DNA of 59,227 nt, from positions 1 through 59,227 of the forward strand of contig CAYZDV010000002.1 in NCBI GenBank assembly GCA_964477275.1. The letters run 5' to 3'. Positions 5,812-53,457 of the stretch are shown in pieces; position 1 is the stretch's first letter; every line of letters begins with the position of its first letter. Both the position numbers and the translations under genes were made by a program. The notes below the pieces were generated by a model. The model worked only from the letters and a program-made list of their open reading frames with translations, did no database searches and had not been told where the DNA came from. Source of the stretch: an uncultured Eubacteriales bacterium. GTDB taxonomy: Bacteria; Acidobacteriota; Aminicenantia; Aminicenantales; Aminicenantaceae.

Positions 5812-5849
5812 TTCAGTCTCTCGCTCTACCGGCTGAGCTGCCTCGCCAT
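5812..5849 (-). pseudogene. Decayed partial copy of tRNA-Phe (positions 1-36 only)
   Basis: The 38 nt at 5812-5849 match 5672-5709 with 3 mismatches, in the same orientation at an offset of 140 nt. The anticodon-stem 3' strand, T-arm and acceptor 3' strand are absent. Confidence 0.7.
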
Positions 5850-5939
5850 TCTCCCTTCTCACAAAAAAGAAATGACTTTGCTCAAATTGAAATAAGGCCA
5901 TAGCTTATGATATTATTTTCAAGCTGGAGGAAAAGCCTG

Positions 5940-6161: not shown

Positions 6162-6179
6162 TCCTGCCATCCCCGGGAA

Positions 6180-17842: not shown

Positions 17843-17847
17843 ATTGG

Positions 17848-19034: not shown

Positions 19035-19037
19035 GGC

Positions 19038-35667: not shown

Positions 35668-37188
35668 TTACGAAGCGAAGACGATTTTAAACTCCGTCCC
35701 GTTTTCCCGCCCGACTTCCACAGTCCCATTGAGCTGCTGGATCAGATCCATGACCAGCTTCAATCCCAATGAAGGGGAGCTGCGAAAATCTATCCCTTCA
35801 GGAAGCCCTGTCCCCGTATCTCGCACCGTGAGGGTGGACTTCCCTTTTCTGTCTCGACAGATCTCCACGGAGATTTCTCCTTCTCCGCCTGAGGGGAAAG
35901 CGTGTTTGAGAGAATTGGAGACGAGCTCGGTGACGATCAGGCCGCAGGGAATGGCTTTTTTCAGGTCGAGGGGGACATCCGTGACATTGACTCTGAGCCT
36001 GACATTTTCCGCCCTCTTTCTGTACATGGAAAAAAGATGGGCGGTTAATTTTTTGATGTATTCCGCCAGGTCAACCGAGGCCAGTTCTTGAGATTGATGC
36101 TGCATTTCGTAGAGGATGGCCATCGACTTTATCCGGTCATGGATGTCATCAAAGACTTCCTGGGTTTTCCGGTCAGCGATGCCAGCCGCTTTGATTCTGA
36201 GCAGGCTGGAGATAATCTGCAGGTTGTTTTTGACGCGGTGATGGATTTCCTTGAGAAGGATGTCTTTCTCCTCGAGCGATTTTCGGATTTGTTCGTCGGC
36301 TCGTTTGCGCTCGGTGATATCACGGACATTTCCCAGCACCAGCGTTTGACCTTTGATTTTAACCGGGTATGTTCGGATTTCCACCGCCACTCGAGTGCCG
36401 TTTTTTCTGTTCAAGACAAATTCGTCCGGACCCGTGGGCTTCCGCATAGCATTTTTGACGAGAAGGCGCGCTGCCCTCGGAATATCTTTCGGAGAGAGAA
36501 GATGCAGCTTTAAAAAGCTCTTTCCGACGAGTTCATCTTTTTTATACCCGGTGAGCTGTTCAGCAGCCCTGTTTCCATCTATAAATCTTCCTTTTACGTC
36601 GTTGAGATAATATCCATCAGGAGCGTATTCAAACAGGATTCTGAACCTCTCTTCAGAGTTTCTCAGCGCTTCTTCCGTCTGCCTGCGTTCGGTGATGTCT
36701 TCGACATAGATTCGACTTCCCACCGCCACCTTTCCTTTGAGGATCGGAGAGACCATGACTTCGAGATGCCGGACAGAGCCGTCTTTCTTGAGGCCCCTGA
36801 AGACATAGGTTGCGGGAACGGCCTTCCCTTTGAGGCGGTTTCTATGAAATCCGGTGACCATCTCCACATCGTCAGGGTGGACGAGCGTCTCGATTGCCTG
36901 GTGTCTCATTTGCTCAGGAGGATATCCGTACAGCTCTGCGGCCTTCTGGTTGGCGTAGACGATATTTCCTTCCTTGTCGTCGATCAAAATGGCGATACTG
37001 GCGTTCTCGACCAGATCCCGGTAAGTGTCTTCAGGCACCGAAAATCCGTCCTTTTTTTCCTCATCTTCATTTCCTGGAGCCATGGATCCGGGATTCCTGC
37101 CCGGCGAATTTTTCATGTCAGCCGGGAGTCCACTTCCCGTTTTCTTTTTGTCTCCCATCTCAGACTCCCTATTATACCCTGAAAACAA
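35668..37188 (-). CDS. Cytoplasmic PAS-PAS sensor histidine kinase, HisKA_2 type
   Basis: 506 aa with no TM segment and two PAS modules. The H-box is EIHHRVKNNLQIISSLL, and the HATPase_c motifs are ELVSNSLKHAF and VRDTGTGLP. Confidence 0.88.
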   Translation of the reverse strand: MFSGYNRESEMGDKKKTGSGLPADMKNSPGRNPGSMAPGNEDEEKKDGFSVPEDTYRDLVENASIAILIDDKEGNIVYANQKAAELYGYPPEQMRHQAIETLVHPDDVEMVTGFHRNRLKGKAVPATYVFRGLKKDGSVRHLEVMVSPILKGKVAVGSRIYVEDITERRQTEEALRNSEERFRILFEYAPDGYYLNDVKGRFIDGNRAAEQLTGYKKDELVGKSFLKLHLLSPKDIPRAARLLVKNAMRKPTGPDEFVLNRKNGTRVAVEIRTYPVKIKGQTLVLGNVRDITERKRADEQIRKSLEEKDILLKEIHHRVKNNLQIISSLLRIKAAGIADRKTQEVFDDIHDRIKSMAILYEMQHQSQELASVDLAEYIKKLTAHLFSMYRKRAENVRLRVNVTDVPLDLKKAIPCGLIVTELVSNSLKHAFPSGGEGEISVEICRDRKGKSTLTVRDTGTGLPEGIDFRSSPSLGLKLVMDLIQQLNGTVEVGRENGTEFKIVFAS

Positions 37189-37266
37189 TTCAGAACAATA
37201 TCCATAAGAACGAGATCGTGGTTTTCATTTCAGAAGCGGGCTGTTCCCTCAATGCTGTCTCCAGGC

Positions 37267-39330: not shown

Positions 39331-39440
39331 CTTCCACTCTCCGCAGGCTTTTTTCTCTCCACCTCCAGGGGACCCTTCTGCTGGACCTGCTTATCCATTC
39401 ATCGGAAACTCGTGCATTCCCGTTCTTTGCATTTTGAATT

Positions 39441-40808
39441 TCAGGGCACCTGGAAAGCGAATTTTTTTGTTTGAAAGAGCCGGGTGCAAATATGAACGAC
39501 GGTCGGGTCGTAAAGAATGTTTTTATTCTTGTTGATTTCACTCAGGCTGATTGTGAGTCCGAGGGCCGGTCGGTAAGGACGGGGGGAGGACATGGCCTCG
39601 ACCACATCAGCGACGGCGAGAATCTTGGCCTCCAGGAGTATTTTATCGCCCGGCAGGCCCTGAGGATACCCTGAACCGTTGATTCTCTCATGGTGCTGGT
39701 AGACAATCTGGGCCACCGGATAGGGAAAGTCGACGGATTTCAAAATATTGTGTCCCACCAGAGGGTGCATCTTGATCATTTGGAATTCAATCTCTGAGAG
39801 GAGGGCGGGTTTGATGAGAATCTCGACCGGGATGTTGATCTTTCCCACATCATGGATCAGGCTGGCATAGCGCAGCCCTTCAATCTGCTCTTCGGGAAGG
39901 CCCATCTCCCGGGCGATGGCATAGGCCAGGCTGGTCACTCTCCTTTGATGGCCGACTGTGTAAGGGTCTCTGATCTCCAGGGCAGAGACCAGGGCGTTGA
40001 TCGTCTCCTCGAATGTTTTCCGCAACCTCTCCAGGGTGTTTTTGAGTTTTTCCTCTGCCCGCCTGCGTTGGGTGACATCCCTTATGATTCCGATTTCTTT
40101 CACATTTTTATGATTTCCAATGGTGACGGTATTGGCCTCGATGATCCGGATTCCTTTGTCCCTGGAGATGATACGGAACTCGCTCCCGTGAGGGATTGTC
40201 TCTCCCTTCTGTTTGGCCTTTTCCCTTTCCATGAGCAGCGGGATGTCTTCCGGGTGGACAATATTCCAGAAATTGAATTCGGCGTTGCACAATTCTTCCT
40301 TTCTCAGGCCGGTGAGCCTTTCAAAGGCCGGGTTGACATACTGGAAGCCGTTCAGGGTGCTGATGTAGATGGCGTCGTATGCGTTCTCAGCCAGGCTCCG
40401 GTATTTCTCTTCGCTTTCTTTGAGTTTCTCCTCCATCTCATGCTTGTAGAGAGCGATCTCGATGGCGGTGTGAATGTCCCTGTCCTGGAAGGGCTTGATG
40501 ATATAGCCGAGCGGCTCTGTGACCTTCGCCCGTTCCAGGGTTTTTTTATCGCTATAGGCCGTGAGATAAACGATGGGAGTGTTGAAGCGGCTCTGGATGG
40601 CCTCAGCGGCCTCGATGCCGTCCATTTTGCCGCTCAGGACGATGTCCATCAATACCAGGTCGGGAAGCGTTTTTTCCGCTTTTCGGACCGCATCTTCCCC
40701 GGAGGAGGCGATCCCACAAACCTCATAGCCCAGTTTTGCGAGGCACAACCGGAGGTCCTCGGACACGATGCGTTCATCCTCGACGATCAAAATCCGGGTT
40801 TTATTCAT
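39441..40808 (-). CDS. Response regulator: REC-PAS-HD-GYP (putative c-di-GMP phosphodiesterase)
   Basis: 455 aa with a REC domain ([10 protein letters not shown]...DLVLMDIVL), a PAS domain, and an HD-GYP domain (HDVGKINIP...HHERINGSGYPQGL). Confidence 0.88.
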   Translation of the reverse strand: MNKTRILIVEDERIVSEDLRLCLAKLGYEVCGIASSGEDAVRKAEKTLPDLVLMDIVLSGKMDGIEAAEAIQSRFNTPIVYLTAYSDKKTLERAKVTEPLGYIIKPFQDRDIHTAIEIALYKHEMEEKLKESEEKYRSLAENAYDAIYISTLNGFQYVNPAFERLTGLRKEELCNAEFNFWNIVHPEDIPLLMEREKAKQKGETIPHGSEFRIISRDKGIRIIEANTVTIGNHKNVKEIGIIRDVTQRRRAEEKLKNTLERLRKTFEETINALVSALEIRDPYTVGHQRRVTSLAYAIAREMGLPEEQIEGLRYASLIHDVGKINIPVEILIKPALLSEIEFQMIKMHPLVGHNILKSVDFPYPVAQIVYQHHERINGSGYPQGLPGDKILLEAKILAVADVVEAMSSPRPYRPALGLTISLSEINKNKNILYDPTVVHICTRLFQTKKFAFQVP

Positions 40809-40867
40809 GCTGAGATACCTCTCTGGCGAGATGGGGATTAAAGAATTCCCAATTGAGCCGAAAAACG

Positions 40868-41254
40868 CTACCTCGTTCCATTTTTTATCTGGAGAATACT
40901 GGAAATTTTGGACCTGAGAATCCCTGTTTCAACAGGCTTGACGAGATAATCCTCGCAGTACATTCCTGCGGCCTTGATCTTGGATTCGTCTCCGTTTTTC
41001 GCGGTGAGCATGATCACGGGAATATGGTATGTTTTTTCGTTCTCCTTCAGCTTTTTCAACACTTCAAACCCGTCGAGGCCGGGCATCATGATGTCGAGGA
41101 TAATCAGGTCCGGTTTCTCTTTGAGGGCGGTTCTTATTCCTTTTTTCCCTCTGTTTGACGTGATGACCACGCTGTTGGTGGTGAGCTCCAGGTTTGTTTT
41201 CAGGAAATAGGCGAAATCCTCTTCGTCATCGATAATCAGGATTTTCTTTCTCAT
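40868..41254 (-). CDS. Stand-alone CheY-like receiver protein
   Basis: 128 aa with [27 protein letters not shown] and VIMLTAK. Its start overlaps the upstream kinase gene by 29 nt. Confidence 0.88.
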
Positions 41255-42794
41255 TTATGGTTCCTCCTGTCGATCGCGCCAGGGGCAGAGCGACTCTAAC
41301 AGTCGTCCCTGCTCCTGGCCGGCTTTCGATTTCCAAAGAGCCCTTATGATTGTCGACGATCATCTTTGTCATGAACAAACCGAGGCCCGTTCCTTTTTTA
41401 TCCCTTTTTGTGGAAAAAAATGGTTCGAAGATTTTCGGCAGGTTCTCTTCCGGAATTCCCTCTCCCGTATCCTTGACTTCGATGATACAGAGCGCGCTGT
41501 CCGGGCAAGAAGGGGGACGATTCAATTTGTATGTTTTCACCGAAATCCTTCCGCCTTTTGGCATGGCGTCGATGGCATTCATCAGGAGGTTTAAGAGAAC
41601 CTGGAGCATCTGATTCCTGTCCACATCAACAGAGATGTCTTCTGCTTCGGCCTCGGCCTTGATTTTGATGTTTTTTAAAGGAATCCTGAATTTCAAAAGA
41701 GAAAGAGCTTCATCTATCAAATCTTGCGGCCTGATCCTTTCAGGTGTTGCCCCGGACGAAGGTCTGGCAAACTTTAATAAATCCTGAACGATTGCGTTGG
41801 CTCTGGTGACCGAGTCTTTCATCTTTTTTATGGCGGTTTTCACATCTTCATCGAGATGGGAAAGTTTCATTTCCAGAAATTCTGCCCCGCTCAGGATGAT
41901 TCCGAGGGGATTTTTGATCTCATGGGCCACTCCGGCGGAAAATCTTCCCAGAGCTGCCAGCTTTTCGGACTGGATGAGTTCGTGCTGCGTTTTCTTCAGG
42001 TCCTCATAGGCGTTTTTGAGCTCATCCATTGTTTTCTTTCGTTCTGACATATCCTGAAACACCAGCACCGCACCGGAAATCCCTCGTTTTTCCAGGATGA
42101 TCGGAGCGCAGTTGTGAATGATGGGAATTTTCCTTTTGTTTTTGGTCACAAGCGTTGCTTGATTCGTCGGTTCGCGAGAAATTCCATCGCCGAGCAGCTT
42201 TGATGCGGAGTCCTCAATCGGCTCGCCTGTTTCTTCATTCGTGATCACGAACACCTCTTTCAAAGGCATGCCCTCAGCCTCATCCTGCGTCCATCCGGTT
42301 AAATTTTCTGCTGCGGGGTTCATGAAGATGATGTTTCCCTTTCTGTCGGTGGCGATGACCGCATCGCCGATGCTGTTGAGCGTGGTGGAAAGCCATTCCT
42401 CGCTTTCTCTTAACTTCTTCTCTATTCTGTGCTTGTAGAGGGCGATTTCTATAATGGAGTGCAACTCTCTGTCGTCGAAGGGCTTGATGATGTAGCCAAA
42501 GGGTTCTGTCACTTTGGCTCGTTCCAGAGTCTTATGGTCGGAATAAGCGGTCAGGTAGATGATGGGAGCATCGAGGAGCGAGCGAATTCTCTGGGCGACC
42601 TCCACGCCATCCATCTTCCCTTGAAGGACGATGTCCATCAGCACCAGGTCAGGCTGCGTCTTCTGAGCCTTTGAAATGGCTTCCTCCCCGGAATGGGCTG
42701 TTCCGCAGACCTGGTGGCCGAGCCTCTCCAGGCTCATCTTGATGTCTTCGGCGACGATGCGCTCGTCTTCGACGATGAGAATGTGTTTTTTCAT
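41226..42794 (-). CDS. Hybrid REC-PAS-HisKA-HATPase_c histidine kinase
   Basis: 522 aa with an N-terminal REC and a PAS domain. The classical H-box is [12 protein letters not shown], with an N box [11 protein letters not shown] and a G box VKDTGEGIP...GTGLGL. Confidence 0.88.
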
Positions 42795-43279
42795 CAGAGC
42801 TCCCTCTTTTGTGACGACGACACTTCGCTTCCAGATAACGTATTTTTCCGATTGAGTCTGGTCACTGCTTGGGTCTCCTCTGGAGACAGGGCTTTTTCGT
42901 TAGCTCTTTGAGAAGGCCAGTTTTTCCTACATCATTCATTTTTCATGTTACTGGGATAAAGTCCATTCGCGGCCATGGGTGGAACAGGCCGGGATTTGCT
43001 TGCAGAAAAAGCAATAGGAAGTTTATGGTTCTGGCCAATGTGAGAAACAAATGAAGGATATTGAACGGAATAGAATATCCGGGGAAAAATATTATAAAAT
43101 TTTATGTATATATAGAGTTGCATTCTCTTCCCCTCCAGAGATGATTAGTCGTTTAGAGAATGAAAAAATTGAAAATACTTTCGTTTTTGTTGAGTATGAT
43201 GGATAAAATCATTGTGTATAAATTCACGCACACCAGTAGATCTGTCAGACGATGAACGTCTTTTCCGCACACTGACGAA

Positions 43280-43295
43280 ATTCATTTCTCTGAAT
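43280..43295. promoter_or_regulatory. Palindromic operator-like site ATTCA-N6-TGAAT (distal)
   Basis: ATTCATTTCTCTGAAT sits within AAATTCATTTCTCTGAATAAAG. This is a near-repeat of the promoter-proximal site 110 nt downstream. Confidence 0.35.
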
Positions 43296-43380
43296 AAAGT
43301 GAAAGACCGGAGGTGCGGAAGCCCGCGAAGAGGGTTTTCAAAAAAATGCAACGTGCCCTCTACAAAAGCATTTCCGTGCA

Positions 43381-43410
43381 TTGACAAAAATTCATCCTCT
43401 CTGAATAATA
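43381..43410 (+). promoter_or_regulatory. Sigma70-type promoter (TTGACA ... TGAATAAT) with embedded ATTCA-N7-TGAAT operator-like palindrome
   Basis: TTGACA lies at 43381-43386, and a TG-extended AT-rich -10 lies at 43402-43410. The palindrome at 43390-43406 occupies the spacer and -10 region. SD AAAGGAGAG and a GTG start follow at 43433. Confidence 0.45.
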
Positions 43411-43432
43411 GGGAAACGAAAGGAGAGCCGGA

Positions 43433-44998
43433 GTGGCCAGACTCTACGAGTACCAGAGCAAGGAGCTGCTGAAGGACGCGGGGATTCGTGTTCCCGAGGG
43501 AGAGGTGGCTTCCTCTCCTCAGGAGGCGCGCCGGATCGCGGAGAAGCTGGCCAGGCCGGTAGTCCTCAAGATCCAGGTCTGGTTGACCGGAAGAGCTGGC
43601 ATGGGCGGGATCCAGTTTGCCGAATCACCCCGTGAAGCGGAACAGGCCGCCGGCCGGATGCTGGGGATGATTGCCGGCCATTTCGTCATCGACAGGGTTC
43701 TCGTCGAGGAAAAACTCGCCATCCAGTCCGAGTATTTTGCCGGATTGGTCATCGACGATGCCCGGAAGTGCCCTGTCGTCATTTTCAGCTCTGCCGGAGG
43801 GACCGGAATCGAGGACATCGCCCGCCGTCACCCGGAAAAGGTGGTTCGGACGCCGGTCGATGTCTTGACCGGGTTAAGGGATTTTGAGGCCCGAAACCTT
43901 CTCCGGCGAGCCGGAATCCGGGGCCGGCATCTTCTTTCCCTGGCCGATGTCCTGACCAGACTGTATGCGGTTGGCCGCCTCTGGGACGCCCGCTCAGCGG
44001 AGATCAACCCGCTGGCGGTCACCGAAGATGGCACGGTGTATGCCGCTGACTGCCATCTGGCCATCGATGACTATGCGGTCTTCCGCCATCCGGAGCTGGG
44101 AATAGAAGTGGCCAGGGAGTTCGACCGGCCGCCGAGCGAGCTGGAGAAAATCGCCTACCGGGTTGAGGAAAAGGACCACCGGGGAACATTCTATTTCCTG
44201 CAGATGGTCGATGAGGTCCCTCCCGGGGAAAAATTCATCGGGTTTCACGGCGCCGGCGGCGGCGGGTCGATGATGTCCATGGATGCCCTGCTGGCCAGAG
44301 GGTTCAAGCTGGCCGATTACTGTGACACCAGCGGAAATCCTTCGGCGAGCAAGGTCTACCGGGCGGCCAGGATCATCCTCTCCCAGCCGAACATCATCGG
44401 CTATTTTGCCTCAGGCTCAGGCGTGGCCAGCCAGGAACAGTACCACTCCGCCCGGGGCTTGGTCAAGGCTTTCCACGAGGAGAACCTCGGGATTCCGGCC
44501 GTCATCCGGCTCGGCGGGAATTTCGAGGAAAAGGCGATGGAGATTCTGGCCGCTTACCTCAAAGACATTCCGGCCCGGGTGGAAGGATACGGCCGGGATG
44601 ACTCGCCGGAGTTCTGCGCCCGCCGGCTGGAGGAGCTGACCGGGCAGGGAAAAATTGTTCCCCACAAGGTCAGACCTCTCGTCGACCCTGAAGTTTCTCC
44701 GGATGCCTATGCGTTCGAGACGCTGACCGGAAGGCTTTTCATCGACCACCGCCGGTGCCCGAGCTGCAGATCCAGAGGATGCATCGAAGCCTGCGCACCG
44801 CAGATCCTGAAGCTTATGGAGGGAAAGCCTGTGCTGGCGGTCTCCACTGAGGAAGCCAGGAAGGGCCGGTGCACCGAATGCCTGGCCTGTGAAATCTTCT
44901 GCCGGTTTCACGAGCAGGATGCCATCGTCATCCATCTCCCCATTACCGGACTGAAGGAGTACAGGGACAACATCATCGCCAGGCAGAATTCAGAATGA
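43433..44998 (+). CDS. Succinyl-CoA synthetase beta-like ATP-grasp subunit (citryl-CoA synthetase large-subunit-like) with C-terminal ferredoxin-type double Cys motif
   Basis: 521 aa with a SucC-like N-terminus (MARLYEYQSKELLKDAGIRVP) and a divergent CoA-ligase domain (GFHGAGGGGSMMSMD). An added tail carries CPSCRSRGCIEAC and CTECLACEIFC (nt 44756-44902). The start is GTG. Confidence 0.75.
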   Translation: MARLYEYQSKELLKDAGIRVPEGEVASSPQEARRIAEKLARPVVLKIQVWLTGRAGMGGIQFAESPREAEQAAGRMLGMIAGHFVIDRVLVEEKLAIQSEYFAGLVIDDARKCPVVIFSSAGGTGIEDIARRHPEKVVRTPVDVLTGLRDFEARNLLRRAGIRGRHLLSLADVLTRLYAVGRLWDARSAEINPLAVTEDGTVYAADCHLAIDDYAVFRHPELGIEVAREFDRPPSELEKIAYRVEEKDHRGTFYFLQMVDEVPPGEKFIGFHGAGGGGSMMSMDALLARGFKLADYCDTSGNPSASKVYRAARIILSQPNIIGYFASGSGVASQEQYHSARGLVKAFHEENLGIPAVIRLGGNFEEKAMEILAAYLKDIPARVEGYGRDDSPEFCARRLEELTGQGKIVPHKVRPLVDPEVSPDAYAFETLTGRLFIDHRRCPSCRSRGCIEACAPQILKLMEGKPVLAVSTEEARKGRCTECLACEIFCRFHEQDAIVIHLPITGLKEYRDNIIARQNSE

Positions 44999-45035
44999 AT
45001 TTCTTTTTTGGCCGATGACAGGAACAGAGGATTAA

Positions 45036-45947
45036 ATGGCGATACTGGTCAACGAGAAATCCCGGGTGGTCGTCCAGGGGATAACCGGCCGCGAGGGCAT
45101 GGCGCGCACCAGTCTGATGAAGGACTACGGAACACAGGTGGTGGCCGGGGTGACTCCTGGAAAAGGCGGAGAAGAGGTGTATGGCATTCCTGTCTTCGAC
45201 TCGGTGGAAGAAGCCTTCGAGGAGACGGGGCCGCTCGATGCGAGCGTCATCTTTGTCCCCGCCTTCCTGGTCAAGGACGCGGCCCTGGAGGCGATCGAGG
45301 CGGGAGTGAAACTCCTGGTCCTCGTCCCCGACCGGGTGCCCATCTATGATGTCCTGGAGATTGCCCGCCTGGCTCGGGAGAAAGGAGCCTGTTTTGTCGG
45401 GCCCAATACCCTCGGCCTGGTCAGCCCGGGAAAAGCGGTGCTGGGCATGATTGGCGGCCGGGCCGAGCGGGCCAGGGAATGGTTTTGTCCGGGCGATGTC
45501 GGAGTCAGCTCGAGAAGCGGCGGCATGACCTCTGCGATCTCGTATTACATGACCACGGCCGGCTTCGGCCAGAGCACCATCATCCATGTCGGCGGGGACG
45601 CGGTGGTCGGCCTTTCCCATCCCGAAGTCATGGAGCTCTTCGAGCAGGATGAGGAGACGCGGCTGGCGGTGATGTTCGGGGAAATCGGCACCAGCCAGGA
45701 AGAGCGCGTGGCCGACCTCATTGAGGCAGGGAATTTCACCAAGCCCCTGGTGGCCTATATCGGCGGAAAAGCGGCCAAGTCTGGAACCCGCTTCTCCCAT
45801 GCCGGGGCTATCGTCGAGGGCAGCCGGGGATCCTATGAAAGCAAAGTCGAGCGGCTGAGAGAGGCGGGCGTCCATCTGGCCGAATCGGTCGCCGACATCC
45901 CGGGAATTATCAGCCGCCTGAAGGGGAAAAAGGGAGGAACGAGATGA
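45036..45947 (+). CDS. Succinyl-CoA synthetase alpha-like subunit (citryl-CoA synthetase small-subunit-like)
   Basis: 303 aa, collinear with SucD: VVVQGITGREG, GVTPGKGG, SRSGGMTS, GFGQST, and the phosphohistidine loop SHAGAI. Confidence 0.85.
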   Translation: MAILVNEKSRVVVQGITGREGMARTSLMKDYGTQVVAGVTPGKGGEEVYGIPVFDSVEEAFEETGPLDASVIFVPAFLVKDAALEAIEAGVKLLVLVPDRVPIYDVLEIARLAREKGACFVGPNTLGLVSPGKAVLGMIGGRAERAREWFCPGDVGVSSRSGGMTSAISYYMTTAGFGQSTIIHVGGDAVVGLSHPEVMELFEQDEETRLAVMFGEIGTSQEERVADLIEAGNFTKPLVAYIGGKAAKSGTRFSHAGAIVEGSRGSYESKVERLREAGVHLAESVADIPGIISRLKGKKGGTR

Positions 45948-46723
45948 GCGAGCTTCACTGGAAAACAGCCATCACCGACGTCCAGCCGAATAAAATCTGC
46001 CTGAGAGGATATCCCATCGACAGATTGATGGGAAAGGTCTCCTTTGCTCAGGCCATCTACCTTGTCCTGAAAGGGGAGTTCCCGTCGACTGAGGTGGGGA
46101 AGCTCATCGATGCCATTTTCGTCTCTTCCATCGACCACGGCGCCAGCCCTCCTTCGGTGCTGACCGCCCGGACCGTGGCCTCGACCGGCGCTGAGCTGAA
46201 CGCCGCCATCGCCGCCGGTGTGCTGGCCATTTCCCGCTACCACGGAGGAGCGATCGAGGAGGGGATGCGCCTTTTCCTCGACATCGCTGGCCGGATGGAA
46301 GAGAGAAAGGCTCCGCTGGATGACGTCGCAGCTGAGGTCCTGGAAGAGATGAAGGCAGAAAAAAAGCGGGCGTCTGGTTTCGGCCACCGCATCCACACCA
46401 GGGACCCCAGGACCCAGAAGCTCTTCGATATGGCTGAGGAACTGGGTCTGGCCGGAACGCATGTCCGCATTGCCCGGGCTGTGGAAAAGGTGCTGGAGAG
46501 ACAGGCCGGCAAACCCCTTCCCATTAACGTGGACGGCGCCATCGCTGCCCTGCTCTGCGACCTCGGCCTGCCTTCCGAGGTTGGCAACGCCTTCTTCATC
46601 ATCGCCCGGGTGCCGGGCCTGGTGGCCCATATCCATGAGGAAAAAATCCGGATGAGGCCGATGAGAAAAATTCATCCTGAGGACTACGCGTATGACGGCC
46701 CGCCGGAAAGGGAAGTCAAATGA
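45944..46723 (+). CDS. Short citrate-synthase-family protein (citryl-CoA lyase-like)
   Basis: 259 aa, corresponding only to the catalytic C-terminal part of citrate synthase (RYHGGAIEE, GFGHRIHTRDPR). It has an ATGA overlap with the upstream gene. Confidence 0.75.
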   Translation: MSELHWKTAITDVQPNKICLRGYPIDRLMGKVSFAQAIYLVLKGEFPSTEVGKLIDAIFVSSIDHGASPPSVLTARTVASTGAELNAAIAAGVLAISRYHGGAIEEGMRLFLDIAGRMEERKAPLDDVAAEVLEEMKAEKKRASGFGHRIHTRDPRTQKLFDMAEELGLAGTHVRIARAVEKVLERQAGKPLPINVDGAIAALLCDLGLPSEVGNAFFIIARVPGLVAHIHEEKIRMRPMRKIHPEDYAYDGPPEREVK

Positions 46724-47256
46724 GAAGAGACGAGATTCTCTCTTTAATGCCCGAGCTGCGGATCATCGGGGACGCCGAGCTCAAGGAAAAAACGATCACT
46801 GTCTGGGTCGAAGCCATCAAAAAAGGCGGATGGACCGCAGATGACCTCCAGCGCATGCCGTTCACTTTGCTCATCGAAGGGACAGGGGTGAACATCATCG
46901 AGCACACCCGGGCGGTCACCCTCTGTTCGCTGGAGATCCACCGCGTGTTAAAGGAGATGTACGAGGAGAGAATTGACATCAACCGGGATTATCTTCTCTC
47001 CGGCGCCCTTCTTCACGATGTGGGAAAGCTGTTCGAGTACAGGAAAGTGAAGGAGAAATTCCTCAAGAGCGGGGAGGGAAAGCTTCTCCGTCATCCGATT
47101 TCCGGCGCTGCCTTTGCCTCCCGGCACGGGCTTCCGCCTGAGGTGGTCCACATCATCGCCGCTCATTCCAAGGAAGGCGACGGAGCCCGGGCGACGGTGG
47201 AAGCGGTGATCGTCAACCATGCGGATTTCGTCAATTTCGAGGCCCTGAAGCTTTAG
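46720..47256 (+). CDS. HD-domain metal-dependent phosphohydrolase
   Basis: 178 aa with the H...HD...H...D pattern (IIEHTRAV, LLHDVGK, LLRHPISG, NHADF). It has an ATGA overlap with the upstream gene. Confidence 0.75.
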   Translation: MRRDEILSLMPELRIIGDAELKEKTITVWVEAIKKGGWTADDLQRMPFTLLIEGTGVNIIEHTRAVTLCSLEIHRVLKEMYEERIDINRDYLLSGALLHDVGKLFEYRKVKEKFLKSGEGKLLRHPISGAAFASRHGLPPEVVHIIAAHSKEGDGARATVEAVIVNHADFVNFEALKL

Positions 47257-47274
47257 ACTCTAAAGGAGGGATGC

Positions 47275-48528
47275 TTGGGCAAGACGTTCTCGGAGAAGAT
47301 CCTCGGCCGCAAGGCTGGCCGCGAGGTTCGAGCCGGTGAGGTCATCACGGCCTCCCCGGATTTCATTCTCTCCCATGATAATTCCGCGGCTATCATCCAG
47401 GAATTCCAGAAGCTGGGCGTGGAGAGAGTGAGCTGCCCCCGGAAGCTGGTCATCATCCTCGACCACGTGGTCCCTGCCTCCACCGAAAAATACGCCCTGA
47501 ACCACAAGATGATCCGGGAGTTCGTCAAGGTGCAGGAACTCTCCCACTTCTTCGATGTCAGCCACGGAATCTGCCACCAGGTTTTCCCAGAGAATGGATT
47601 TGCCCTGCCCGGGAAACTGATCCTGGGTGCTGACTCCCATACCACGACCTATGGCGCGTTTGGCGCCTTCTCAGCCGGCATCGGCCGCTCGGAAGTGGCC
47701 GCTCTCTGGGCCACCGATGAGACCTGGTTGAAGGTTCCGGAGACGCTGAGAGTGGTCATCGAAGGCCGGCTTCCTCCGGGAGTCTATGCCAAGGACATTA
47801 TTCTCAGGGTCATCGGCGACCAGGGTGCAGACAGAGCCAACTACATGGCTGTGGAGTTTGGCGGTGATGTGGTGAAGCAGTTAAGTCTGGCTTCCCGGAT
47901 GGTGCTCTGCAACATGAGTGCCGAGATGGGCGCCAAGAACGGCTACTGCGAGCCGGACCAAAAGCTTCTCCGCTGGCTCCGGGGACGGGCTCAGGATGAG
48001 TTTGAGGTGGTCGTCTCCGACCCGGATGCCACATATGAACAAACGCTCCATTACGATGTCTCTTCTCTGGAGCCGCAGGTGGCCTGCCCTCACAGCGTGG
48101 ACAATGTCCGGCCGGTCTCCGAAGTCGAGGGAACGGAGTTTGATCAGGCACTGCTCGGCACCTGCACCAACGGCCGGCTCGAGGATCTGGAGGCGGCGGC
48201 CAGAATCCTCGGGGGTAAGGCCGTCCGCTCCGGAGTGAGGGTTCTGGTCATTCCGGCCTCCCGGCAGGAATACCTGATGGCTCTGCGGAAAGGAGTCATT
48301 GAAGCCCTGGCTGCTGCAGGCTGTCTTATCCTCAACCCGGGCTGCGGACCCTGTCTCGGGGCGCACCAGGGAATTCTGGCTCCCGGCGAGGTGGCCCTGA
48401 GCACAGCCAACCGGAATTTCCGCGGCCGGATGGGAAGCCGGGATGCGGAGATCTACCTGGCCTCACCGGCGACAGTGGCGGCCTCGGCCCTGGAGGGAAA
48501 AATCACCGACCCGAGGAAATATTCATGA
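47275..48528 (+). CDS. Aconitase-family dehydratase large subunit (LeuC/HacA type), paralogue 1
   Basis: 417 aa with GADSHTT, cluster Cys in GTCTNGR and NPGCGPCLG, and substrate motif NRNFRGRMG. The start is TTG. Confidence 0.85.
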
Positions 48529-49031
48529 AGAAAGGAAGAGTCTGGAAATACGGCGATAATGTCAACACAGATGTCATCTTCCCGGGCAAATACACATACT
48601 CGGTGCTCGAACCGGCGGAGATGGCCCGGCATGCGCTGGAAGACCTGGACCCGGATTTCAGCCGGAACGTCAGGGCCGGCGATGTCGTTGTCGCGGGCCG
48701 CAACTTCGGCTGCGGAAGCTCGCGGGAGCAGGCAGCCACCTGCCTCAGGACTTCCGGCATCCAGGCTGTTGTGGCCAAATCCTTTGCCCGGATTTTCTAC
48801 CGCAACGCCATCAACCAGGGGCTTCCGGCCCTCCAGTCCGAGGAGGCGGCCGAGAAGATCGAAAACGGAGAGGAAATTGCCATCGATTTTGCCCGGGGCG
48901 AGATCAAAACAGAAAAAGGACTGTTTCCCTTCAACCCTTTCCCCGATTCGGTCCTGGGCATTCTGGAGGAGGGAGGCCTCATTCCCTACACCATGAAAAA
49001 ATTGAAGAAGGCGCGGAGGAGGTGTCCATGA
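48525..49031 (+). CDS. Aconitase-family dehydratase small subunit (LeuD/HacB type), paralogue 1
   Basis: 168 aa with [27 protein letters not shown] and [11 protein letters not shown]. It overlaps upstream by 4 nt. Confidence 0.85.
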
Positions 49032-50143
49032 AAAGGTACAGAATTGCCGTGCTCCCCGGAGATGGCGTGGGAAAGGATGTCATGGAAGCAGCCATGATCG
49101 TGCTGGAGACACTCAAGCTCGATGCGGAATACGTTCAGGGTGATATCGGATGGGAGTTCTGGTGCCGGGAAGGAAATCCCCTTCCCGATCGGACGGTCAA
49201 AATGCTCAAGGAGACCGATGTCTGCCTGTTCGCAGCCATCACCTCCAAGCCCAAGGAGGATGCCCTCAGAGAGCTCGACCCGGGGTTGAGGAACAAGGGA
49301 TATTCCTATTTCAGCCCCATCGTCCGCCTGCGTCAGGAATTCGACCTCTACACCAACCTCCGGCCCTGCAAAGCCTATCCCGGCAACTCGCTCAATTACC
49401 GCGATGATATCGACCTCGTCATCTTCCGGGAGAACACCGAGGGGATGTACGCGGGCGTGGAATTCCATCCACTTCCCGAAGAAGTGCGTCAGGGGCTGCT
49501 CATCCATCCCAAGATGGCCAGGTTCAGGGATATTCCCGCTGAGGAGGTCGCCCTCTCAACCAGGATCATGACCCGGAAAGCCTGCCAGAGAATTGTCAGG
49601 CGAGCCTTCGAATACGCACAAAAGCGGAAGCGCCGCTCCGTGACCCTGGTGGAGAAGCCAAATGTGCTTCGCGAGACAGGGGGGTTCATCCTCGATATCG
49701 CCAGAGATATTGCCAGAGAGTTCCCGGATGTGGAATTCCGGGAGGCCAACGTCGATGCCATGGCCATGTGGCTGGTCAAGAATCCGCAGGACTACGATGT
49801 CCTGGTGGCTGAAAACCTCTTTGGCGACATCATTTCCGACCTCGCCGCCCAGCTGGTCGGCGGACTCGGCTTTGCCTGCAGCGGCAATATCGGCGACGCG
49901 TATGCGGTCTTTGAGCCGACCCACGGCTCGGCTCCCAAGTATACCGGCCTCTACAAGGTGAACCCGACAGCGATGCTCCTGGCCGCCAAGATGATGCTGG
50001 AATGGCTGGGAGAAGAGGAGAAGGCGCGCCGCCTGGAAGAGGCTGTCGCCCGGGTCATCCAGGAGGGAAAGGTCCGGACCTACGACATGGGCGGCGGCGC
50101 CACCACGCTCGATGTGGCCCGCGAAGTCGCCTCAAAGCTATAA
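49028..50143 (+). CDS. Isocitrate / homoisocitrate / 3-isopropylmalate dehydrogenase family enzyme
   Basis: About 371 aa with [37 protein letters not shown] and [12 protein letters not shown]. An inserted segment after RENTEG resembles the ICDH branch. ATG 49028 overlaps the upstream TGA. Confidence 0.8.
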
Positions 50144-50155
50144 AAAAAATATCAG

Positions 50156-51421
50156 ATGGGCAAGACAATCATCGAGAAAATCATCCAGGAGCACAGCCGG
50201 GAAGAGGTCCGGCCGGGAAAGATCGTCTGGATGGACATTGACCTTCGCACGGCCCGGGACTTCGGCGGCCCCAACGTGGTCAAGCACTATGAAAGGGAAT
50301 ATGATGACCTGCCGGTTGCTGACAGGAAGAAGACCTTCTTCACCTTTGACCTCTGCGTCCCGGCCTGCATGCTCAAATACGCCTCGGGCCAGCAAATCTG
50401 CCGGCAGTTTGCCAGAAAACAGGAAGTCAGGGTCTTTGATGTGGAAAACGGAATCGGCTCCCATGTCCTGATCGAGGAAGGCCTGGCCAGGCCGGGGACG
50501 ACCGTTGTCGGGACCGACAGCCACCTCAACATCCTCGGCGCAGTGGGTTCGTTCGGCCAGGGGATGGGCGATGTGGACATCGCCTTTGCTTTCAGGACAG
50601 GAAAGACCTGGTTTGAGGTTCCCCGGACCATCCGGGTCAACGTGAAAGGCCGTACCGGCCCCGCAGCAACGGCCAAAGACCTCACCCTTTACCTCCTGAA
50701 GCTGCTGGGGACGAAGGTGGCGGCCCTGAAGGCCGTCGAGTTCTACGGCGAGGCAGTGAGGGAGCTCACGCTTTCCGGCCGGATCACTCTCTGCAGCATG
50801 GTCACAGAGATGGCCGGCATCGCCGGTTTCATTCCCGAGAGCAGCAGGTCTTTTCTCTCCGACATGGAAATCCTGTGGGCAGAGAAGTTTCTCCATCCTG
50901 TGGCCGATTCCGACTGCGCCTATTCGGAACTCCTGGAGGTCGATGTGAGCGGGCTCGGCCCTCAGGTGGCCGTGCCCTTTTCTCCGGATAAGGTGGAGGA
51001 TGTTTCCGGGCTCAAGAAAATCAAAATCGACACGGGATTCATCGGCTCCTGCACCAACGGCCGCAGCGAAGACCTGGCCCTCGCCGCCCGCATCCTCAAA
51101 GGGAAGAAAATCAAGGATGGGGTGACGCTCAAGGTTGTCCCGGCCACCCGGCGGGTTTACCGGGAAATCCTGGAGAAGGGCATCCTGGAGGACCTTTTCC
51201 GCAGCGGCGCGGTGATCGGAAACCCGGGCTGCGCCGGCTGTGCCGAGGGCCATATCGGCCTGACGGGCGAGGGTGAGGTTCAAATCAGCACCGGCAACCG
51301 GAATTTTGCCGGCAAGCAGGGAAAGGGAATGACCTATCTGGCCAGTCCCGCGGTGGTGGCTGCGTCCTGTCTGGCTGGTCACATCGCCAGTCCCCAAGAT
51401 GTAGAGAGAGATGATGTATAA
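50156..51421 (+). CDS. Aconitase-family dehydratase large subunit, divergent paralogue 2
   Basis: 421 aa that retains the three cluster Cys (GSCTNGR, NPGCAGCAEG). It has GTDSHLN instead of DSHT and NRNFAGKQG instead of NRNFxGR. Confidence 0.8.
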   Translation: MGKTIIEKIIQEHSREEVRPGKIVWMDIDLRTARDFGGPNVVKHYEREYDDLPVADRKKTFFTFDLCVPACMLKYASGQQICRQFARKQEVRVFDVENGIGSHVLIEEGLARPGTTVVGTDSHLNILGAVGSFGQGMGDVDIAFAFRTGKTWFEVPRTIRVNVKGRTGPAATAKDLTLYLLKLLGTKVAALKAVEFYGEAVRELTLSGRITLCSMVTEMAGIAGFIPESSRSFLSDMEILWAEKFLHPVADSDCAYSELLEVDVSGLGPQVAVPFSPDKVEDVSGLKKIKIDTGFIGSCTNGRSEDLALAARILKGKKIKDGVTLKVVPATRRVYREILEKGILEDLFRSGAVIGNPGCAGCAEGHIGLTGEGEVQISTGNRNFAGKQGKGMTYLASPAVVAASCLAGHIASPQDVERDDV

Positions 51422-51522
51422 TGGGGTTGTTCCAAAGCGGTGGGACAAAATGAGAGGAAGTTCCTTTTCAGGATGTCAATGAATTCGCGCCGGAATTTAA
51501 CCAAATAAACAATAGAGACAGG

Positions 51523-52065
51523 ATGAAAGAATCGCGCATTTCGGGAAGGATCTGGGTGCTGGCCGGCGAAGACGGCCGTCTGATCGAGGATGTCGATACC
51601 GACCAGATCTACCACAATGCCTTCCTTCATATTACCGACATCGCTGAGATGGGCCAGTATGCTCTGGGCAACCTGAAGGGATGGGAGGATTTCCCCCGCA
51701 AGGCCCGGCCAGGCGACGTTCTCGCTGCCGGCCGGAATTTTGGAGGCGGGTCCTCCCGCCAGCAGGCCGTGGACTGTTTTCGTTCCCTGAGCATCGGCCT
51801 GATCCTGGCGCCTTCTTTTGGAGCCATATATTTCCGGAACGCCGTCAACTCCGGCCTGCCCGTTCTCAGATGCGTTGGCCTTGAGGAACTGGTTGCAGAC
51901 AAGCGCTTTCGGAACGGCGATGATGTTCGAGTCGATCTCCGCTCCGGCAAAGGCCTGAACGTCAGCCGGAATTTCTCTTTTCCGGTGATGCCGATGAGTT
52001 CTATTCAGCTCGAGATCTTCGAGGCCGGCGGACTTTTCCATTACGGAAGAAAAATCCAGAAGTAG
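51523..52065 (+). CDS. Aconitase-family dehydratase small subunit, divergent paralogue 2
   Basis: 180 aa with DVDTDQIYHNAF, GRNFGGGSSRQQA (canonical GCGSSREHA) and FGAIYFRNAVN. Confidence 0.8.
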   Translation: MKESRISGRIWVLAGEDGRLIEDVDTDQIYHNAFLHITDIAEMGQYALGNLKGWEDFPRKARPGDVLAAGRNFGGGSSRQQAVDCFRSLSIGLILAPSFGAIYFRNAVNSGLPVLRCVGLEELVADKRFRNGDDVRVDLRSGKGLNVSRNFSFPVMPMSSIQLEIFEAGGLFHYGRKIQK

Positions 52066-52075
52066 AGGAGAAAGG

Positions 52076-52756
52076 ATGATTTTTCTGGCCGTGGACACGA
52101 CCACTTTTTCCGGGTCAGTCGCCCTTCTGAAGGGAACAGAGCTCCTCGGCGAAGTCAACATCGAATCCTCCGTAACCTTTTCGGAGCGCCTTCTTCCGGC
52201 CGTGGACTTCCTCCTCAGGGCTCACGGTCTGACCATCGAGGAGATGGAAGGCTATGCCCTTGCCGTGGGTCCGGGTTCCTTCACCGGAATCCGCATCGGG
52301 TTGAGCACCGTCAAATCTTTTGCCTATGCTTCGGGAAAGCCGGTGGCCCCGGTCTCCACCCTGAAGGCCCTGGCCTTGAAGTTGAGCCATCCCCGGGGCC
52401 GTCTCATCTGCCCCCTGCTGGATGCGAAAAAAGGGGAAATTTTCGCTGCCCTTTTTGAAACAGGACGAGGAGAGTTAAGGGAGGTGGTTCGCCAGGGCGC
52501 CTACAAGCCCGACCAGTTCCTTTCCCTCCTTCCTGCCCACCGGATCATTTTCTTCATCGGAAACGGCGGCGAGGCTTACAGGGAGAAAATTGTCTCCTAT
52601 TTCCAGGACAGGGCCAGGTTTTCTCCCCGCTCGCCCTTCATTGCTCATGAGGTGGGCTTGCTCGGCTACGCGCTTCTGGTGAAGAAAAAGGGTCTGAGCG
52701 CGCATCAACTGGAGCCCCTCTATTTTCGAAAATCGCAGGCGGAGAAGAATGATTAA
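52076..52756 (+). CDS. tsaB: tRNA t6A biosynthesis protein TsaB (YeaZ)
   Basis: 226 aa with the N-terminus MIFLAVDTTTFSGSVAL and the block VGPGSFTGIRIGLSTVKSFA. Confidence 0.88.
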   Translation: MIFLAVDTTTFSGSVALLKGTELLGEVNIESSVTFSERLLPAVDFLLRAHGLTIEEMEGYALAVGPGSFTGIRIGLSTVKSFAYASGKPVAPVSTLKALALKLSHPRGRLICPLLDAKKGEIFAALFETGRGELREVVRQGAYKPDQFLSLLPAHRIIFFIGNGGEAYREKIVSYFQDRARFSPRSPFIAHEVGLLGYALLVKKKGLSAHQLEPLYFRKSQAEKND

Positions 52757-53246
52757 GAAGGCCAAGATTCTTCCCGATTTCTTCACCCTGAGGCGGATGG
52801 AAGAAAGAGACCTGTCCGCTGTCCTGGAAATCGAGAACCTCTCCTACCCCAATCCCTGGCGAGAGATGACCTTCAGGGGAGAGATCCAGAACGCTGCCAT
52901 CTCTTTTCCCTACACCATCGACCATAAGTACCAGCAAAGGGTCATCGGCTACATCATTTTCTGGGTCGTGAAGGACAGGGCCCAGATCAACAATATCGCC
53001 ATTCACCCGGATTTCAGGCGGATGGGCGTGGCTGAGGCGGTCATGCGCCAGGTGCTGGATTTCATGCCCAGGGCAGGAGTGGAGCTGGCCACGCTGGAGG
53101 TCCGGCCTTCCAATGTCGCAGCCCGCTCATTGTACAAGAAGCTCGGTTTCGAGCTTCTCTGGGTCAGGCAAAACTACTACAATAACCCTCGCGAGGATGC
53201 CCTTATCCTGGGCAAATATTTCCGCCAACCCACCCGCCCTTCCTGA
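52749..53246 (+). CDS. rimI: Ribosomal-protein-alanine N-acetyltransferase
   Basis: 165 aa with the GNAT motif A IAIHPDFRRMGVAEAVM and the block LEVRPSNVAARSLYKKLGF. It shows the classic tsaB-rimI adjacency with an 8-nt overlap. Confidence 0.88.
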   Translation: MIKKAKILPDFFTLRRMEERDLSAVLEIENLSYPNPWREMTFRGEIQNAAISFPYTIDHKYQQRVIGYIIFWVVKDRAQINNIAIHPDFRRMGVAEAVMRQVLDFMPRAGVELATLEVRPSNVAARSLYKKLGFELLWVRQNYYNNPREDALILGKYFRQPTRPS

Positions 53247-53457
53247 TCATCGTCTTTCTATCGAGGAGTGAGGCAGGTCGCAGCCTGATTTTTCTTTTTC
53301 GCTCTCCTCGACCACAAGCATCGATGCAGTCAGGGCTTTCATCGTTTGTGAGCTCATCATGACGTGGTAATAAAAGTGGCGTCTCGAAGAATGAAGAAGA
53401 TTCCTTCGCTTTACCCGGAGCAGACATGATAATTTAATGATTTTTCTGGCGACTGCA

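Follow-up and report, generated by a model that had tools for sequence, protein, structure and literature searches.

We analyzed a 59,227-nucleotide stretch of DNA, hereafter called the window, from an uncultured member of the Aminicenantes (class Aminicenantia, Acidobacteriota), which carries nine co-directional genes on its plus strand at positions 43433-52065. These genes encode a SucC-like and a SucD-like subunit of an acid-coenzyme A (CoA) ligase, a short citryl-CoA-lyase-family protein, an HD hydrolase-fold protein, two aconitase-family hydro-lyases of two subunits each (hydro-lyase A, LeuC1-LeuD1; hydro-lyase B, LeuC2-LeuD2) and a beta-decarboxylating dehydrogenase located between the two hydro-lyases. 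Judging from protein families, active-site motifs and gene associations, we favor with moderate confidence the reading that the operon encodes a citrate branch linking 2-oxoglutarate with oxaloacetate and acetyl-CoA, in which the isomerization would be split between two enzymes and citrate would be cleaved in two ATP-dependent steps, probably running towards cleavage. The chemistry proposed is of a known kind, namely ATP-dependent two-step citrate cleavage; each of the components, however, represents a new lineage or variant, and the module is found well beyond the Aminicenantes.

In the proposed route, the dehydrogenase would interconvert 2-oxoglutarate, CO2 and NAD(P)H with isocitrate, hydro-lyase A, which has a homoaconitase-type loop, would interconvert isocitrate and cis-aconitate, and hydro-lyase B, the putative functional equivalent of PrpD elsewhere, would interconvert cis-aconitate and citrate. 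The SucCD-like ligase with its iron-sulfur (Fe-S) module would then form citryl-CoA from citrate, ATP and CoA via a phosphohistidine, and the short citrate-synthase-like lyase would split citryl-CoA into acetyl-CoA and oxaloacetate, both steps being reversible in principle.

Conservation of the operon and its proposed citrate-cleavage enzymes

The nine open reading frames (ORFs) were confirmed by ORF calling and domain assignment, and the gene inventory, coordinates and domains given in a preliminary description of this DNA were all present, as were its four ATGA overlaps, read from the sequence at 45944, 46720, 48525 and 49028. That description had also stated that a lack of cluster conservation in related genomes would refute it. 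Among 80 loci from GTDB species representatives of the Aminicenantes, all nine genes occurred in the same order in 34, and a further 37 were colinear until the contig ended. The nine deviating loci comprised five with only the first six genes at the site, two without ccsAB 5' of ccl, and two (L074 and L075) that end after leuC1. The arrangement is identical in the complete chromosome CP070750.1, where tsaB and rimI come after the nine genes. Given this conservation, the gene arrangement is not due to chance. In L035 (4000-10777) and L044, from Candidatus Aminicenans sakinawicola, the order is ccl-HD-leuC1-leuD1-dehydrogenase-leuC2-leuD2 with no ccsA or ccsB upstream; loci of this type keep the upstream sigma/anti-sigma synteny, and the ligase has been lost or relocated in that lineage. 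Genes inserted in the variant loci L029, L043, L058, L062, L067 and L082 were considered as a pathway clue or condensing enzyme and rejected as unrelated (Gfo/Idh/MocA-like proteins, sigma factors and others).

The ligase large subunit (43433-44998, 521 aa) matched ATP-grasp_2 with E = 2e-50 and Citrate_bind weakly (23.9 bits against a cut-off of 26.8), and the small subunit (45036-45947, 303 aa) has CoA_binding and Ligase_CoA domains with a SHAGA phosphohistidine motif that is invariant in 66 orthologues. Neither subunit reached the cut-offs of succinyl-CoA synthetase (SCS): the large subunit scored 240 bits against 375 for TIGR01016 and 238 against 370 for NF001913, and the small subunit scored 303 against 353 for TIGR01019 and 301 against 336 for NF004230. 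Over its full length the large subunit is closest, among solved structures, to the Thermus SCS beta subunit (225 bits), compared with 119 bits for CcsA of the citryl-CoA synthetase (CCS) of Hydrogenobacter thermophilus (6hxq_B). In the acid pocket it has the motifs GAGGGGS, DTSGNP and SGVASQEQ. The GGGGS and SGNP elements are common to this ligase, CCS and ATP-citrate lyase (ACL), where SCS has NGAGLAM and GGGA, and the acid-site motifs of the SCS beta subunit (xNGAGLAM, D[IV]GGGA and IFGGI[VT]R) are absent. When motifs were read from an alignment of the full-length matches found by an exhaustive search of 1.84 billion representatives, four classes emerged, namely SCS, CCS, ACL and the class of the window (G[AI]GGGG[SA], D[TS]SGNP, ASQEQ). 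A rough neighbor-joining tree of 111 full-length representatives likewise placed the ligase in a third clade, separate from SCS and from CCS plus ACL; CCS-type representatives (E[IV]GGNP, NNTR) grouped with ACL, away from the ligase of the window.

By its sequence, then, this ligase belongs to a clade of its own and is no ordinary SCS. Nor is it a CcsA orthologue, since it scores 119 bits against 6hxq_B and 225 against Thermus SCS and forms that separate clade. The missed cut-offs, the pocket motifs and the separate clade likewise place the first two proteins outside bona fide succinyl-CoA synthetases. In the Planctomycetota locus L084, the small subunit and the lyase are fused in one 566-aa polypeptide with the architecture of the ACL alpha subunit, AclA; this fusion is absent from the window, where the two genes are separate and translationally coupled through an ATGA overlap. 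The closest relatives of the ligase without the Cys-rich tail described below, from archaea and others, adjoin a CitE-type acyl-CoA lyase. In all of these contexts the ligase family thus stands beside a C-C lyase for CoA esters, which fits a citrate-type CoA ligase and not an SCS.

The lyase (45944-46723, 259 aa) corresponds to the C-terminal half of Citrate_synt. It passed the lyase models NF004869 (284 bits, cut-off 212) and NF004866 (276, cut-off 245) and missed the equivalog NF004864 (244, cut-off 261). Its best solved relative is the citryl-CoA lyase (CCL) of H. thermophilus (6hxp; 210 bits, 45% identity), and the citrate-synthase-type lyase motifs HGGA, GHR, DPR, NVDG and RVPG are conserved, which identifies it at the sequence level as a citryl-CoA-lyase-family member. 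The comparison of the first three genes with CcsA, CcsB and Ccl made in the preliminary description thus holds for the two-step architecture and for the family of the lyase; it does not hold for the large subunit, which is not orthologous to CcsA.

The C-terminal tail of the large subunit has a ferredoxin-like 2x[4Fe-4S] motif region (44756-44902, residues 442-490; CxxCxxxxCxxxC(A)P followed by CxxCxxCxxxC), in which none of the eight Cys varies among 70 Aminicenantes orthologues. The tail alone matched Fer4_9 with E = 4.7e-4 and 20.6 bits, under the gathering score of 27, and it was poorly modelled in the AlphaFold2 structure of the subunit, with pLDDT below 50 at the Cys motifs. In the Bathyarchaeia locus L086 and in L089, this module is encoded separately, by a 92-aa ORF that lies between the genes of the two ligase subunits, and in a Planctomycete relative it is retained with most of its Cys lost. 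Because it occurs as a free ORF in tail-less relatives and is retained in the Planctomycete, the module appears from these comparisons to be an old and integral partner of the ligase family, with Fe-S binding that is lineage-dependent.

Dehydrogenase, HD protein and two hydro-lyases

Metagenomes were scanned with four dehydrogenase sequences, from the window, from L083 (an unclassified 2.7-Mb contig with the same nine-gene cluster), from L084 and from L090 (Ignavibacteriaceae), which yielded 80 further loci. The dehydrogenase of the window (49028-50143, 371 aa) matched Iso_dh with 309 bits (E = 4.5e-92) and reached no NCBIfam equivalog cut-off. Its best single PDB match was the homoisocitrate dehydrogenase (HICDH) of Thermus thermophilus (255 bits), with NAD-dependent isocitrate dehydrogenase at 251 bits and isopropylmalate dehydrogenases (IPMDH) at 197 bits or less. 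The substrate loop reads SPIV, a sequence found in 80 of the 80 metagenome loci; it keeps the equivalent of Ser113 and has neither the Arg85 of Thermus HICDH nor the Glu-x-x-Leu-Leu of IPMDH. There is also a 15-aa insertion, and orthologues in L083, L084 and L090 are 53-63% identical. On these sequence grounds the dehydrogenase is a distinct clade that groups with isocitrate dehydrogenase (ICDH) and HICDH rather than with IPMDH. An additional loop Arg (SPIVR) was considered as a binder of the distal carboxylate and rejected, as it is not conserved outside Aminicenantes, where G, T, A or S takes its place.

The HD protein (46720-47256, 178 aa) scored 56 bits for Pfam HD and 46 bits for TIGR00277 (HDIG), with the H..HD..H..D metal motif conserved. 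A sequence search of the PDB gave no match, and the AlphaFold2 model (pLDDT 88) matched in Foldseek only generic HD folds, YhaM being the best with a TM-score of 0.62. Its gene adjoins that of the dehydrogenase in 24 of the 26 metagenome loci with at least 8 kb on both sides, so it is the most faithful neighbor of the dehydrogenase and belongs with it, not with the ligase and lyase. Textbook citrate chemistry offers no step for this protein; that it and the Fe-S module serve in regulation or redox sensing is only a guess.

Hydro-lyase A consists of a LeuC/HacA-type large subunit, LeuC1 (47275-48528, 417 aa, Aconitase), and a small subunit, LeuD1 (48525-49031, 168 aa, Aconitase_C). LeuC1 scored 549 bits for TIGR01343 (hacA_fam, cut-off 386) and 575 bits for NF001614, and has the SHDNS, LDH, CHQ and DSH motifs as well as the three Cys ligands. 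LeuD1 has the GSSRE motif, scored 204 bits for LEUD_arch (TIGR02087) and is closest to the small subunit of the Methanocaldococcus jannaschii isopropylmalate/citramalate isomerase (161 bits). Its loop, PGKYTY, differs from YLVY of MJ1277 (methanogen isopropylmalate isomerase) and from YLRT of MJ1271 (methanogen homoaconitase), and is kept in L083, L084 and 20 of 30 metagenome loci. The window proteins score below the cut-off of 530 bits for the homoaconitase model TIGR00139 (310 and 104 bits). Hydro-lyase A is thus, as far as motifs tell, catalytically canonical and distinguished mainly by the PGKYTY loop.

On the other hand, LeuC2 (50156-51421, 421 aa, Aconitase), which belongs to the aconitase family by NF001614 (421 bits, cut-off 385), has FDL in place of FDH, GSH in place of CHQ, ARDFGG in place of xHDxxG, and Ser in place of Asn258. 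All orthologues examined have Leu or Cys at the position of His101 and Ser/Thr-His for His147-Gln, and ARDFGG and FD[LC] were found in 19 of 19 metagenome orthologues; the three cluster-binding Cys, DSH and NRNF are retained. The small subunit LeuD2 (51523-52065, 180 aa, Aconitase_C; loop NAFLHIT, GSSRQ motif) scored 118 bits for LEUD_arch, could be aligned to solved small subunits and is conserved across orthologues. Hydro-lyase B is therefore classed, from its motifs, as an aconitase-family member with a remodelled active site and no equivalent of His101. Note that leuC2 and leuD2 are separated in the window by 101 nt (51422-51522), in which no ORF or RNA family was detected; in most relatives the two genes nearly abut, and in some metagenome lineages they are fused in an ORF of ~600 aa (L107, 11841-13637; L132, 11779-13611).

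An MmgE/PrpD protein takes the place of LeuC2D2 in L084, L090 and many metagenome loci, so that the hydro-lyase pairs consist either of LeuC1D1 and LeuC2D2 types or of a fused fungal-type 'homoaconitase' and MmgE/PrpD. PrpD of E. coli dehydrates citrate and is not known to act on isocitrate, and the PrpD model NF006943 carries the NCBIfam name bifunctional 2-methylcitrate dehydratase/aconitate hydratase. Fungal and Thermus homoaconitases catalyze only the ene-to-iso half-reaction, the other half being left to a different enzyme, and in the methylcitrate cycle PrpD performs the first half of the isomerization (PMC3556520). Because the homoaconitase-type enzyme is always accompanied by PrpD or by the LeuC2D2 that lacks His, and these two are interchangeable, we infer that the two hydro-lyases carry out two half-reactions of one isomerization. 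The two separate isomerization steps envisaged in the preliminary description are disfavored by the homoaconitase loop of a half-reaction enzyme, the loss of His101 and the exchange for PrpD.

Interchangeable cleavage systems and rival explanations

The core module, that is, the dehydrogenase, the HD protein and the two hydro-lyases, recurs in other phyla without the ligase and lyase, beside the citrate lyase CitDEF. A CitD-CitE fusion followed by CitF was found beside the module in at least 22 metagenome loci, often with Acs near; CitD and CitE form one protein of ~400 aa in these lineages, and CitF scored 484-503 bits against a cut-off of 501 (503 in L123). Three cleavage systems are thus attached to the module, namely CcsA with its ferredoxin-like tail, CcsB and CCL in Aminicenantes and L083, the ACL-like fusion in Planctomycetota, and CitDE-CitF. 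Given that CCL, CitE and CitDEF are all enzymes of citrate or citryl thioesters and that PrpD acts on citrate, citrate would be the most economical substrate, and a citrate-isocitrate-2-oxoglutarate branch, one of the two functions considered in the preliminary description, is the best-supported reading on account of these attached cleavage systems. Citrate lyase works physiologically in the cleavage direction and, together with Acs, equals ACL. Since the same module is coupled to CitDEF, we favor the reductive direction, from 2-oxoglutarate to citrate and its cleavage.

Other loci encountered in these searches show the components in different company. In L132, an ADP-forming acyl-CoA synthetase, an acyl-CoA dehydratase activase and a 2-hydroxyacyl-CoA-dehydratase-like subunit (5594-9772, minus strand), typical of amino-acid fermentation, adjoin a dehydrogenase-HD-LeuC2D2-CitDE-CitF-LeuC1D1 locus. 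L087 (7494-16197) has a distant ligase (34% identical) in a catabolic-looking cluster without dehydrogenase or HD genes, made up of an ABC transporter, a PrpD-like protein, ccl-like, ccsA with the ferredoxin-like module, ccsB, a LeuCD-like pair, a PrpF/4-oxalomesaconate-tautomerase-like protein and a GntR regulator. L089 (1974-10271) combines a tail-less ccsA, the 92-aa ferredoxin-like ORF, ccsB, a CitE-like lyase, a PrpD-like protein, a cupin and DUF1847, and ends with a succinate dehydrogenase/fumarate reductase flavoprotein (949 bits). L088 (6748-10621) has a very distant pair resembling ccsA with its ferredoxin-like tail and ccsB (29% identity), with degenerate pocket motifs and no lyase, beside a Ser/Thr protein kinase and a radical-SAM/SPASM maturase; this pair probably represents a different function on the same scaffold.

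Several observations weigh against the citrate branch as proposed. The third pocket motif, ASQEQ, is specific to this ligase class, ACL having ANFT and CCS having ANNT at that place, and the equivalent of Asn115 of isocitrate dehydrogenases is missing from the dehydrogenase. The PGKYTY loop of LeuD1 is identical to the fungal homoaconitase loop NTDGIYPGKYTY in retrieved fungal sequences, hacA_fam is the best-scoring model for LeuC1, and the counterpart of hydro-lyase A in L084 passes TIGR00139 with 728 bits against 530. Furthermore, two-enzyme isomerization has precedents for homocitrate and methylcitrate, but not for citrate, and the preferred direction would rest on the CitDEF lineages, not on Aminicenantes. 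The pocket motif and the three signs of homoaconitase also speak for a homocitrate branch, which would interconvert 2-oxoadipate with 2-oxoglutarate and acetyl-CoA via homoisocitrate, cis-homoaconitate, homocitrate and homocitryl-CoA and would operate in the synthesis of lysine/aminoadipate or in the breakdown of 2-oxoadipate, with the ligase and lyase replacing a homocitrate synthase of the LeuA/NifV type. T. thermophilus HICDH being the top PDB match of the dehydrogenase points the same way, and a homocitrate branch would explain the need for two hydro-lyases, the aminoadipate pathway being the classic case of a two-enzyme isomerization. However, isocitrate is the preferred substrate even of T. 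thermophilus HICDH, the module is joined by three different cleavage systems of the citrate type, and the ~170 loci contain no aminoadipate-pathway or LysW-type genes. To our knowledge, no citrate-synthase-fold enzyme or CitDEF acts on homocitrate or 2-oxoglutarate, and such a specificity is without precedent in a citrate-synthase-fold lyase, the ligase or CitDEF, so that homocitrate would demand two unprecedented specificities where citrate demands none. Of the citrate-analogue routes offered as an alternative in the preliminary description, homocitrate thus stands as the serious candidate and the main rival, which we nevertheless consider unlikely, and methylcitrate and citramalate fit poorly. 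Another citrate analogue, be it 2-methylcitrate, citramalate or an aconitate/itaconate-type acid, seems very improbable to us. The PrpD/PrpF-family genes beside distant ligase and lyase relatives, the citramalyl-CoA lyases among relatives of CitE and the isomerization of citramalate by LeuC/LeuD relatives could be cited for it; 2-methylisocitrate, however, is a tertiary alcohol and therefore no substrate for such a dehydrogenase, citramalate requires no more than one isomerase, the lyase motifs retain their Arg residues according to our own mapping onto citrate synthase, and the dehydrogenase groups with tricarboxylate-acting enzymes. An itaconate route via a PrpD-family cis-aconitate decarboxylase was considered and rejected, because an itaconyl-CoA hydratase is absent and no role would be left for the dehydrogenase.

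The same citrate branch could instead run oxidatively in Aminicenantes, with the lyase and ligase acting as an ATP-conserving citrate synthase that supplies 2-oxoglutarate for glutamate; this would suit an anaerobe with an incomplete tricarboxylic acid (TCA) cycle and is a real alternative for the ligase-bearing lineages, one that we rate as rather unlikely and yet slightly ahead of homocitrate. The ligase and lyase reactions are near equilibrium, ACL runs synthetically in Desulfobacter postgatei, and the operon is housekeeping-like and universally conserved, beside tsaB-rimI. Aminicenantes are described as fermenters and not autotrophs (PMC5459899), and an Aminicenantes 'citrate synthase' is transcribed in sediments (PMC6469976). 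In other lineages, however, the homologous module is coupled to Acs and CitDEF, which does not synthesize citrate, and distant relatives of the ligase and lyase are clustered with a transporter and a GntR regulator in what look like catabolic loci. Much less probable still is mere adjacency of sucCD, a citrate synthase fragment, two leuCD pairs and leuB, the outcome that the preliminary description had named as its own refutation. It would agree with the Thermus SCS beta subunit as best solved relative of the large subunit, with the similarity of LeuD1 to the M. jannaschii isomerase and with public annotations that read scs, cs and idh. Against it stand the missed SCS cut-offs, the absence of the SCS pocket motifs (NGAGLAM, GGGA and GGITR) and the separate ligase clade, the fusion of the SucD-like subunit to the lyase in L084, a dehydrogenase that is nearer to ICDH/HICDH than to IPMDH and lacks the Glu-x-x-Leu-Leu loop, and the loss of the catalytic His from LeuC2. 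The dehydrogenase is thus not an ordinary LeuB and LeuC2D2 is not an ordinary LeuCD; moreover, the module exchanges partners with CitDEF and PrpD, and no leuA was seen in the ~170 loci around it, as far as the gene panels and Pfam assignments used would reveal.

For the reductive citrate branch, 2-oxoglutarate could come, for example, from glutamate in peptide- and sugar-fermenting Aminicenantes, and the route would drain glutamate-family carbon to acetyl-CoA and C4 acids and re-oxidize NAD(P)H. Alternatively, it could be a segment of a reductive TCA cycle. An anaerobic Ignavibacteria genome has been reported without citrate synthase and aconitase (PMC7509429), which is compatible with the module filling that gap. 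In its widest form the proposal is more tentative, and we regard it as possible rather than probable: a widespread module of anaerobic bacteria would comprise a distinct isocitrate-type dehydrogenase with an obligatory HD partner, an aconitase function divided between two half-reaction enzymes, of which one is an Fe-S hydro-lyase lacking the catalytic His and exchangeable for PrpD, and one of three interchangeable cleavage systems, among them a third lineage of citrate-CoA ligase with a ferredoxin-like Fe-S subunit of its own, and would convert 2-oxoglutarate reductively to acetyl-CoA and oxaloacetate.

Surroundings of the operon and relation to known systems

Downstream of the nine genes lie tsaB and rimI (52076-53246, plus strand; TIGR03725, 146 bits), which are syntenic, outside the pathway and possibly co-transcribed with it. 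A promoter-like site, TTGACA-17-AATAAT (43381-43409, plus strand), with 11 of 12 consensus matches, is found 24 nt 5' of the first gene, and a terminator-like hairpin at 53274-53287, 3' of rimI, is the first one past the nine genes that falls between two genes. Both scans were consensus matching, and this evidence is weak because such matches are equally frequent in shuffled sequence. Two promoter-like boxes (TTCCG..CA.TGAC.AAA..TTCAT..CTCTGAATAA) ~109 nt apart were noted at 43250-43420, within a 640-bp AT-rich region 5' of the operon; the copies are ~76% alike, and the downstream one is the 11/12 sigma-70-like site. No riboswitch or other RNA element was detected in the upstream region with Rfam, and a repeat search there was also empty.

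Directly upstream of the operon is a divergent signalling block of four genes (35668-42794, minus strand), which encodes two PAS histidine kinases, a response regulator with PAS and HD-GYP-type domains and a hybrid response-regulator/kinase; the loci L001 and L002, though syntenic, lack this block. A tRNA gene (5635-5707, minus strand; Rfam, 71 bits) and a type IV pilus assembly cluster with PilM, PilN, PilO and secretin (15132-20117, minus strand) are unrelated to the operon. In the rest of the window only housekeeping, pilus and signalling genes were found, with no TCA, reductive TCA, leucine or lysine genes among the larger ORFs scanned (several of 90-309 aa were left out). Among the scanned ORFs of at least 90 aa, with the same omission, there was no 2-oxoglutarate:ferredoxin or pyruvate:ferredoxin oxidoreductase and no fumarate reductase, and an asd-like gene scored below cut-off and was uninformative.

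Among known systems, CcsAB and Ccl of H. thermophilus (6hxq, 6hxp) share with the window the SucC-like, SucD-like and short lyase proteins, the lyases being 45% identical, and the GGGGS, GNP and phosphohistidine motifs. Unlike CcsA, the large subunit of the window scores only 119 bits in that comparison, falls in a separate clade, has ASQEQ instead of ANNT and carries the additional ferredoxin-like module; its genes also share one operon with hydro-lyases and a dehydrogenase, and its host, presumably a fermenter, is not known to be autotrophic. The overall reaction proposed is the same as that of AclAB (Chlorobium limicola, 6hxj) and mammalian ACLY, and the Planctomycete SucD-lyase fusion resembles AclA. 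Moreover, the proposed sequence from 2-oxoglutarate via isocitrate and citrate to acetyl-CoA would be that of hypoxic mammalian cells, in which glutamine-derived 2-oxoglutarate is reductively carboxylated. In contrast to AclAB and ACLY, the window has separate subunit genes, a ligase of another clade, a putatively split isomerization, an Fe-S module and an HD protein.

The aminoadipate pathway of fungi and Thermus, with aconitase and homoaconitase (PMC3556520), is similar in having a hydro-lyase with a GKYTY loop, a second, unrelated or divergent hydro-lyase and an HICDH-like dehydrogenase. It differs in that the operon has no homocitrate synthase or lysine genes, that the partner hydro-lyase is no true aconitase but either PrpD or a LeuCD paralogue lacking His101, and that citrate-type cleavage is attached. 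The methylcitrate cycle likewise has a PrpD-family first half and an aconitase-family second half, and PrpD replaces LeuC2D2 in related loci; the module, however, has no PrpB lyase and contains a beta-decarboxylating dehydrogenase, which methylisocitrate cannot serve. CitDEF of citrate fermenters occupies the place of the ligase and lyase beside the same module in many uncultured lineages. Unlike these, the window has no CitDEF, classical cit operons have neither the dehydrogenase nor the hydro-lyases, and CitD and CitE are fused in the module loci. A full-text literature search returned no description of the cluster, of a PrpD-type homocitrate/citrate dehydratase in such a context or of a ferredoxin-fused CcsA.

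Citrate cleavage and the steps between citrate and 2-oxoglutarate are marker reactions for carbon fixation and for the metabolic reconstruction of uncultured microbes. Surveys overlook the present genes because they are annotated as succinyl-CoA synthetase, citrate synthase, leucine dehydratases and a generic dehydrogenase; in a survey of 52,515 metagenome-assembled genomes, only 10 CCS/CCL genomes were listed (PMC9802188). The operon, which has an unusual version of every enzyme, most likely indicates that a central metabolic branch exists in a form not yet described, and it offers candidates for a missing dehydratase of homocitrate/citrate and for a control of citrate cleavage by redox state. 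If the citrate branch is correct, Aminicenantes and many lineages related to Ignavibacteria, Planctomycetota and Bathyarchaeia would have a non-canonical citrate branch, the aconitase reaction would be divisible between two enzymes for citrate itself, and the SucC/CcsA/AclB superfamily would have a third, Fe-S-bearing branch, which would bear on the evolution of ATP-citrate lyase and citrate synthase. If the wider module also exists as proposed, it would be the counterpart, in bacteria, of the reductive glutamine metabolism of mammals, and would amount to either a third way of fermenting glutamate or a cryptic segment of the reductive TCA cycle.

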